A DNA stretch of 64,000 nt from Escherichia coli (GTDB taxonomy: Bacteria > Pseudomonadota > Gammaproteobacteria > Enterobacterales > Enterobacteriaceae), in assembly GCF_024223415.1 (NCBI RefSeq), contig NZ_CP100500.1. One strand, 5' to 3'. Below, in pieces: positions 43,098 through 43,752 of the stretch; the stretch's first letter is position 1; every line of letters starts with the position of its first letter. The notes beneath the pieces are model-generated. The model did no database searches. It had not been told where the DNA came from and was given only the letters and a program-made list of their open reading frames with translations. Position numbers and translations under genes: made by a program.

Positions 43098-43364
43098 ATG
43101 GACATTAACAACAAAGCCCGCATTCATTGGGCATGCCGCCGTGGTATGCGCGAACTCGATATTTCAATCATGCCGTTTTTCGAACATGAGTACGACAGCT
43201 TAAGCGATGACGAAAAACGCATCTTTATTCGTCTGCTGGAATGTGACGATCCAGACCTGTTCAACTGGCTGATGAATCACGGTAAACCGGCCGATGCAGA
43301 ACTGGAAATGATGGTCCGACTCATCCAGACACGGAACCGGGAACGTGGTCCTGTGGCAATCTGA
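43098..43364 (+). CDS. sdhE: FAD assembly factor SdhE (antitoxin CptB)
   Basis: 88 aa, [21 protein letters not shown]. Confidence 0.9.
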
Positions 43365-43752
43365 TTTGCGCGTCTCCTGGCGCGCGCAGTGGCTTTCCTT
43401 GCTGATTCATGGGCTGGTTGCCGCTGTTATTTTACTCATGCCCTGGCCGCTCAGTTACACCCCGTTATGGATGGTGTTACTTTCGCTGGTGGTGTTTGAT
43501 TGCGTTCGCAGCCAGCGGCGCATTAATGCTCGCCAGGGGGAAATTCGCCTGTTGATGGACGGGCGTTTGCGTTGGCAAGGGCAGGAGTGGAGCATCGTCA
43601 AAGCGCCGTGGATGATTAAGAGCGGCATGATGCTGCGTTTACGTTCTGATGGCGGTAAACGGCAACATTTATGGCTGGCAGCCGACAGCATGGACGAAGC
43701 CGAATGGCGGGATTTACGGCGGATTTTGTTGCAACAAGAGACGCAAAGATAA
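43345..43752 (+). CDS. ygfX: inner membrane protein YgfX (toxin CptA)
   Basis: 135 aa, two transmembrane segments, overlaps sdhE by 20 nt. Confidence 0.85.

Follow-up and report, generated by a model that had tools for sequence, protein, structure and literature searches.

We examined sdhE-ygfX, a pair of small overlapping genes on the plus strand of a 64,000-nucleotide stretch of Escherichia coli DNA (contig NZ_CP100500.1 of assembly GCF_024223415.1), which we refer to as the window. The open reading frame list and the raw sequence place sdhE (also named ygfY or cptB) at 43098..43364, running from an ATG start to a TGA stop at 43362-43364 and encoding 88 amino acids, and ygfX (cptA) at 43345..43752, running from a GTG start to a TAA stop and encoding 135 amino acids. 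The two genes share 20 nt (43345-43364), with ygfX read in the +1 frame relative to sdhE. The original prediction, made from the DNA letters alone, had described an 88-residue SdhE-family protein and a 135-residue two-helix membrane protein with a 20-nt overlap between their genes, and had named the pair sdhE-ygfX/cptB-cptA; both sizes and the extent of the overlap proved exact, and RefSeq annotation, K-12 coordinates, Pfam and NCBIfam concur on the names. The alignment with K-12 that it had proposed as a check confirmed the identity, since both proteins are 100% identical to those of E. coli K-12 MG1655 (b2897 for SdhE and b2896 for YgfX). At the nucleotide level the window differs from K-12 at two positions in sdhE and six in ygfX, and all eight differences are synonymous. 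Identical DNA in RefSeq is annotated as 'FAD assembly factor SdhE' (FAD, flavin adenine dinucleotide) and 'protein YgfX'. The pair in the window is already known and is an ordinary E. coli operon with K-12-identical products. We consider it very likely that the locus represents a chromosomal housekeeping operon, in which SdhE flavinylates the complex II flavoproteins and YgfX is probably the membrane partner of SdhE. Conservation and the restriction of substitutions to synonymous sites rule out chance open reading frames as an explanation of the pair. Four antisense or alternative-frame open reading frames in the same region (43455..43916, 43124..43264 and 42932..43123 on the minus strand and 43409..43555 on the plus strand) were considered as genes and set aside, as none has a Pfam match.

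The assignment of the first gene product is supported by two family models in addition to its identity with the K-12 protein. Pfam Sdh5 (PF03937) matches SdhE over residues 7-79 (E=5e-26, 90.8 bits against a cutoff of 27), and the NCBIfam equivalog NF008130 (FAD assembly factor SdhE) spans residues 1-88 of 88 with 198.4 bits, the cutoff being 120. The RGxxE motif of the family reads RGMRE at residues 15-19. A search of the PDB returned the YgfY structures 1x6i and 1x6j (1x6i_A, E=8e-59 over residues 1-88) together with 6c12_D and 6b58_B, both named 'FAD assembly factor SdhE'. We take 6c12 to be SdhE in complex with SdhA. The 6b58 structure is an assembly intermediate of FrdA and SdhE, in which the carbonyl of SdhE Gly16 is hydrogen-bonded to FrdA His44, the FAD-binding histidine; the site that SdhE occupies on FrdA is the same as that used by FrdB, and the capping domain is rotated by ~10.8 degrees (PMC5773532). 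Deletion of ygfY in E. coli gives viable cells whose succinate dehydrogenase (SDH) activity is drastically lower and which hardly grow on succinate (PMC5293155). That SdhA and FrdA need SdhE to become covalently flavinylated and active is established by the literature on the identical K-12 protein, and the flavinylation mechanism has been demonstrated for exactly this protein. In this mechanism, cytoplasmic SdhE binds free SdhA or FrdA on the face later taken by the iron-sulfur subunit and, while bound, holds the capping domain in its rotated position, in which FAD is more readily joined covalently to the active-site histidine.

The second gene product belongs to the Pfam family Cpta_toxin (PF07254, formerly a domain of unknown function), which matches residues 2-131 on profile positions 1-132 of 133 (E=7e-50, 169.1 bits, cutoff 27.3). 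NCBIfam holds no model for YgfX, and a sequence search of the PDB found no relative of it. We aligned 46 family members, with identities down to 26%, all of which match PF07254, and used this alignment to build an AlphaFold2 model. Eight positions are near-invariant in the alignment: S11, G65, W77, W82, W110, D114, W121 and R122. Hydropathy windows above 1.6 mark two hydrophobic segments at about residues 13-38 and 36-54, and the model (predicted local distance difference test score, pLDDT, 93.3) contains a strand at residues 2-8, helices at 12-31 and 36-62, six strands within 65-112 and a helix at 118-134, so that the two-helix architecture anticipated for this protein is seen by both approaches. 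YgfX is accordingly predicted to be an inner-membrane protein in which an N-terminal strand and a pair of transmembrane helices precede a cytoplasmic domain of ~75 residues. The arginine cluster that follows helix 2 (RSQRRINAR) suggests, by the positive-inside rule, a topology with both termini in the cytoplasm.

The YgfX model has the features by which the pleckstrin homology-like (PH-like) superfold is recognised, namely an antiparallel beta-sandwich of seven strands that a C-terminal alpha-helix closes. A Foldseek search with the full-length model found no match in the PDB at E<=0.001, and none of the 46 family members matches any of the Pfam families bPH_1 to bPH_6 at E<=1. For these reasons we regard a PH-like fold of the modelled cytoplasmic domain as moderately supported. 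We found no statement of such a fold for YgfX in the literature that we searched. The two-helix and PH-like model and the conserved residues offer concrete targets for mutagenesis.

To describe selection on the pair, we counted substitutions between the window and five other E. coli strains, K-12 among them, extending down to the most divergent match (96.9% nucleotide identity). Across this comparison sdhE shows no non-synonymous and 2-7 synonymous substitutions, its product carrying the same accession (WP_000354046.1) in all strains, and ygfX shows 0-2 non-synonymous and 3-11 synonymous substitutions, giving a ratio of non-synonymous to synonymous substitution rates (dN/dS) of ~0.05 at most. 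Selection on the pair is strongly purifying. The 20-nt overlap is free of substitutions in all of the strains, the most divergent match included. Searched by megablast, sdhE-ygfX was found full-length, once per genome and in the same gene order in 5425 of 5426 complete E. coli genomes; one genome had no match, and one match lay on a record labelled as a plasmid.

Candidate mobile copies were sought in plasmid and phage collections and rejected, because at least six hits are chromosome-sized records, one that was inspected is a chromosomal segment and another is a broken terminal copy. Homologues of ygfX occur in 12 of 72,556 plasmid records, of which at least six are chromosome-sized (4-5.4 Mb; for example NZ_OL790696.1, 4.8 Mb). 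A 51-kb 'plasmid' of Enterobacter hormaechei (NZ_CP114989.1) has no replicon typing and carries the gene order bglA-trhA-ygfZ-sdhE-ygfX-fldB-xerD-dsbC-recJ-prfB-lysS, including the genes for a release factor (prfB) and lysyl-tRNA synthetase (lysS). The Lelliottia copy, at one end of a linear record, is split into three pieces. Among 50,697 phage records there are two with a homologue, a 691-kb Salmonella contig and an unannotated record of 1,540 bp. We note that several 'plasmid' records in PLSDB are whole chromosomes or chromosomal segments, which would inflate the plasmid-borne count of any core gene. Neither SdhE nor YgfX is matched by the PADLOC defence models. The accessory, patchy or mobile distribution that is typical of toxin-antitoxin systems, although not strictly defining for them, is absent from the pair; it does form a compact two-gene operon of small proteins, a feature common to many operons unrelated to toxin-antitoxin systems.

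We then considered the junction between the two genes. The GTG start codon of ygfX (43345-43347) straddles two sdhE codons, taking its first two bases from the end of Arg83 and its third from the start of Gly84, and the overlap falls in the C-terminal tail of SdhE, beyond the residues modelled by Pfam. Upstream of the ygfX start there is only a weak purine-rich stretch. Related loci came from phmmer, run with a single sequence against 1.84 billion cluster representatives, among which YgfX had only 133 relatives at E<=0.001. The gene neighbourhoods of seven divergent members (27-37% identity) were fetched. The overlap between sdhE and ygfX is 20 nt in an Enterobacteriaceae bacterium (L004) and in two further loci (L005 and L007), 26 nt in Pantoea ananatis (L003), and 14 nt with an ATG start in L006, and a gap of 30 nt separates the genes in L010/L011. 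The start codon is placed in the same way in the window and in L003, L004, L005 and L007, where a cGTGg start lies inside a conserved 'RG' dipeptide of SdhE. In total, sdhE lies directly upstream of ygfX in seven of the nine related loci fetched, corresponding to six of seven distinct contexts and reaching down to 27% identity. In every related locus that can be read on the upstream side, ygfZ is found there in divergent orientation, including loci whose downstream genes are different. Since the junction is conserved among relatives, translation of ygfX is probably coupled to that of sdhE through the overlap; both proteins would be made from the same mRNA, and ribosomes finishing sdhE probably re-initiate at the GTG codon 20 nt inside the end of the gene.

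The remaining context is provided by Candidatus Symbiodolus clandestinus (GCA_038960095.1 and GCA_047692335.1), an insect symbiont in which sdhE is absent beside ygfX (L008/L009). On its 1.5-Mb contig a homologue of 147 residues (2919-3444 of the fetched loci) follows ygfZ after 82 nt, and this spacer contains neither sdhE nor a remnant of it. The gene is convergent with one encoding a nadB-like flavoprotein, beyond which lie rpoE and rseA. Database entries of 207-217 residues that contain both Pfam domains were considered as natural SdhE-YgfX fusions. Because nearly all are singletons and four of them (P0002, P0003, P0005 and P0008) join the two proteins at four different points, they look like artefacts of insertions, deletions or frameshifts within the overlap region and not like natural fusions; these entries derive from metagenome or read-archive assemblies.

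Upstream of sdhE in the window lies the divergent gene ygfZ (41875-42855, minus strand), and the 242-bp intergenic region between them (42856..43097), which has the same length in K-12 and differs by five substitutions, presumably carries the sdhE-ygfX promoter. A Shine-Dalgarno-like AGGAAG is located at 43089-43094, just 5' of the sdhE start codon, and TACAAT at 43057-43062, 36 nt 5' of the ATG, is a possible -10 element that has no good -35 partner. Downstream, ygfX is convergent with fldB (43792-44313, minus strand), and the 39-bp spacer between them, identical to that in K-12, contains a stable hairpin at 43756-43785. Its RNA fold has a predicted energy of -18.3 kcal/mol on the plus strand (z -3.75) and -17.9 kcal/mol on the minus strand (z -4.70), with a U-rich tail on the fldB (minus) strand only. 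It looks like a terminator and was missed by a simple terminator scan because its loop exceeds 8 nt. Two terminator-like matches inside ygfX were discarded as being at chance level (2 observed, 1.3 expected). YgfZ supports the function of iron-sulfur enzymes and FldB is a flavodoxin; these neighbours fit a cofactor-maturation neighbourhood.

An Rfam scan found no RNA family within or adjoining sdhE-ygfX. Elsewhere in the window three unrelated matches pass the gathering thresholds, all on the minus strand: 6S RNA (ssrS, 27588-27771), a Sib antitoxin RNA (26789-26939), the RNA component in a locus of the type I toxin-antitoxin kind, and the small RNA ES036 (11531-11573). A copy of the IS3-family element IS1397 occupies the trhA-ygfZ spacer (~40361-41864, with open reading frames at 40440..40970 and 41075..41797 on the plus strand); it ends ~10 bp past the ygfZ stop codon and leaves sdhE-ygfX untouched. 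The complete trhA-IS1397-ygfZ arrangement is present in just 6 of the 5426 complete E. coli genomes, among them NCTC10444, NCTC9112, KV7 and SCU-316, and so serves as a lineage marker for the source strain.

What has been demonstrated, either by the present analysis or in the literature, is which genes these are, that the pair is conserved and how SdhE works. For YgfX we infer a probable role as a membrane-anchored protein that binds or modulates SdhE during the maturation of complex II, and not as a dedicated toxin. In Serratia, sdhE and ygfX are co-transcribed (PMC5042078) and their products interact (PMC3985639). In the model outlined here, YgfX would insert into the inner membrane by its two helices, leaving both termini on the cytoplasmic side, and would expose the putative PH-like domain there. 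A more specific version, which we put forward tentatively and regard as unlikely, is that YgfX acts as a PH-like adaptor that docks SdhE, or an SdhE-bound flavoprotein intermediate, at the inner membrane and thereby couples covalent flavinylation to the transfer of SdhA or FrdA onto the iron-sulfur and membrane subunits. The docking site would be the conserved Trp-rich surface (W77, W82, W110, D114, W121 and R122). If this adaptor role were true, the symbiont ygfX that has no neighbouring sdhE would point to a client range that is broader or independent of SdhE.

Several observations weigh against a role for YgfX as the partner of SdhE in a housekeeping operon. No loss-of-function phenotype linking YgfX to flavinylation is reported in the literature, and in Serratia deletion of ygfX had no discernible effect on motility, unlike deletion of sdhE (PMC5042078). 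A two-hybrid assay in Shewanella saw no interaction between YgfY and YgfX (PMC8621075). As the symbiont keeps ygfX although sdhE is not adjacent, YgfX may have a role that does not require SdhE next door. A strict scan for the sigma-70 consensus across 42700-43950 returned zero sites, and coupled translation, the topology in the membrane and a PH-like domain are predicted features. Finally, there are reports of toxicity: overexpressed E. coli YgfX (CptA) is described as inhibiting growth and altering cell shape, with relief by SdhE (CptB), in the work of Masuda 2012 as summarised in PMC8621075, and a similar claim of growth inhibition and relief has been made for the homologues from Acinetobacter baumannii (PMC8132199).

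These reports underlie the rival view of sdhE-ygfX as a true toxin-antitoxin system of type IV, in which membrane-bound YgfX would block the polymerisation of FtsZ and MreB and so halt division under some stress, and SdhE, moonlighting next to its part in flavinylation, would counteract it. Such a system was reported in E. coli by Masuda 2012, to the extent that it is summarised in PMC8621075 and cited in PMC3985639, and the A. baumannii proteins expressed in E. coli showed dose-dependent rescue (PMC8132199); the layout of two small overlapping genes in one operon is itself toxin-antitoxin-like, and the Pfam family of YgfX bears the name 'Cpta_toxin'. The original prediction had called the module known but functionally debated, and this is a just description in that the literature is split on toxin-antitoxin activity, whereas the flavinylation role of SdhE is established structurally and genetically in E. 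coli. However, every result in favour of a toxin was obtained by overexpressing a membrane protein, and growth inhibition by overexpressed YgfX is most simply explained as an effect of such overexpression. The literature indicates that loss of the supposed antitoxin is not harmful on account of the toxin in either E. coli or Shewanella. The E. coli deletion strain is viable and shows loss of SDH activity instead of toxicity (PMC5293155), and in Shewanella there is no toxin-antitoxin phenotype, YgfX is not toxic, and the double deletion has the phenotype of the ygfY deletion, which it fails to rescue (PMC8621075). No toxin-antitoxin phenotype was found in Serratia either, yet YgfX and SdhE interact (PMC3985639), and since a type IV antitoxin is defined as not binding its toxin, the Serratia data contradict the type IV label. 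The genomic evidence also weighs against a classical module and makes the debate a lopsided one in favour of a housekeeping operon, because the pair is core, immobile, syntenic and under purifying selection, with no real plasmid or phage copies and no PADLOC match, and because an orphan ygfX is kept in the reduced genome of a symbiont that has no adjacent sdhE. Taken with these points, the existence of a genuine type IV module at this locus appears improbable. The genomic evidence further argues that the toxin label for ygfX is misleading. This has practical consequences, as the Pfam name leads automated toxin-antitoxin surveys to count a core housekeeping gene as a toxin; in one survey Cpta_toxin was 'highly prevalent across all STs' (sequence types; PMC10790755).

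A different explanation is that the overlap and co-transcription reflect genome compaction only, and that YgfX has a function with no connection to SdhE or complex II, such as that of a general membrane adaptor or a client of membrane biogenesis. The orphan ygfX of Ca. Symbiodolus speaks for this, as does the lack of a reported ygfX phenotype in flavinylation-linked traits (PMC5042078). YgfX was among the proteins that a YibN-SPA pull-down yielded when interactors of YidC were being sought (PMC11997395), and the phylogenetic ranges of the two genes are unequal, sdhE being widespread among alpha-, beta- and gamma-proteobacteria and eukaryotes (PMC5042078), whereas YgfX is represented by so few clusters in the database searched. 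Compaction by itself does not sit well with the retention of sdhE directly upstream of ygfX in most related loci, down to the most distant relatives and even where the downstream neighbours are different, or with the conserved start-in-stop junction. Moreover, both genes are co-regulated as one operon (PMC5042078) and a physical SdhE-YgfX interaction has been published for Serratia (PMC3985639). We judge compaction alone, with a function of YgfX apart from SdhE, to be very improbable, and retain the interpretation of YgfX as a probable membrane partner of SdhE.

Comparison with described systems places the pair as follows. The closest is K-12 MG1655, with which the window shares the amino-acid sequences, the gene lengths, the 20-nt overlap, the lengths of the 242-bp upstream and 39-bp downstream spacers, and the neighbours ygfZ, fldB, xerD, dsbC and recJ; the differences amount to the eight synonymous coding and five upstream-spacer substitutions and to the IS1397 copy in the trhA-ygfZ spacer, which K-12 lacks. 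The sdhEygfX operon of Serratia sp. ATCC 39006, studied by the Fineran laboratory, contains the same family pair in the same order, with SdhE needed for flavinylation of SDH and fumarate reductase (FRD) and with YgfX as a membrane protein (PMC5042078, PMC3985639). It belongs to another genus, and what is known of its regulation (FlhDC, RsmA and RsmC) and of its connection with prodigiosin is Serratia-specific. Eukaryotic SDHAF2 and yeast Sdh5 (PF03937) belong to the same family as SdhE, carry the RGxxE motif and likewise act in joining FAD covalently to the complex II flavoprotein, but are mitochondrial and have no YgfX-like partner gene, and the bacterial protein also serves fumarate reductase. 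As for YgfX, it shares with membrane-anchored bacterial PH-like proteins a predicted layout in which a hairpin of transmembrane helices precedes a beta-sandwich that a C-terminal helix caps. The bPH_2 families, with a PH-like domain after two transmembrane helices, are an example of such proteins. With CbtA/CbeA (YeeV/YeeU), the defining type IV system of E. coli, the pair has in common the two-gene operon and the reported interference with FtsZ and MreB on overexpression. CbtA/CbeA is found in cryptic prophages, is variable and multi-copy, and its toxin CbtA is soluble. By contrast, sdhE-ygfX is core, single-copy and absent from real mobile elements, YgfX is membrane-bound, and SdhE has an independent and proven role in enzyme assembly.

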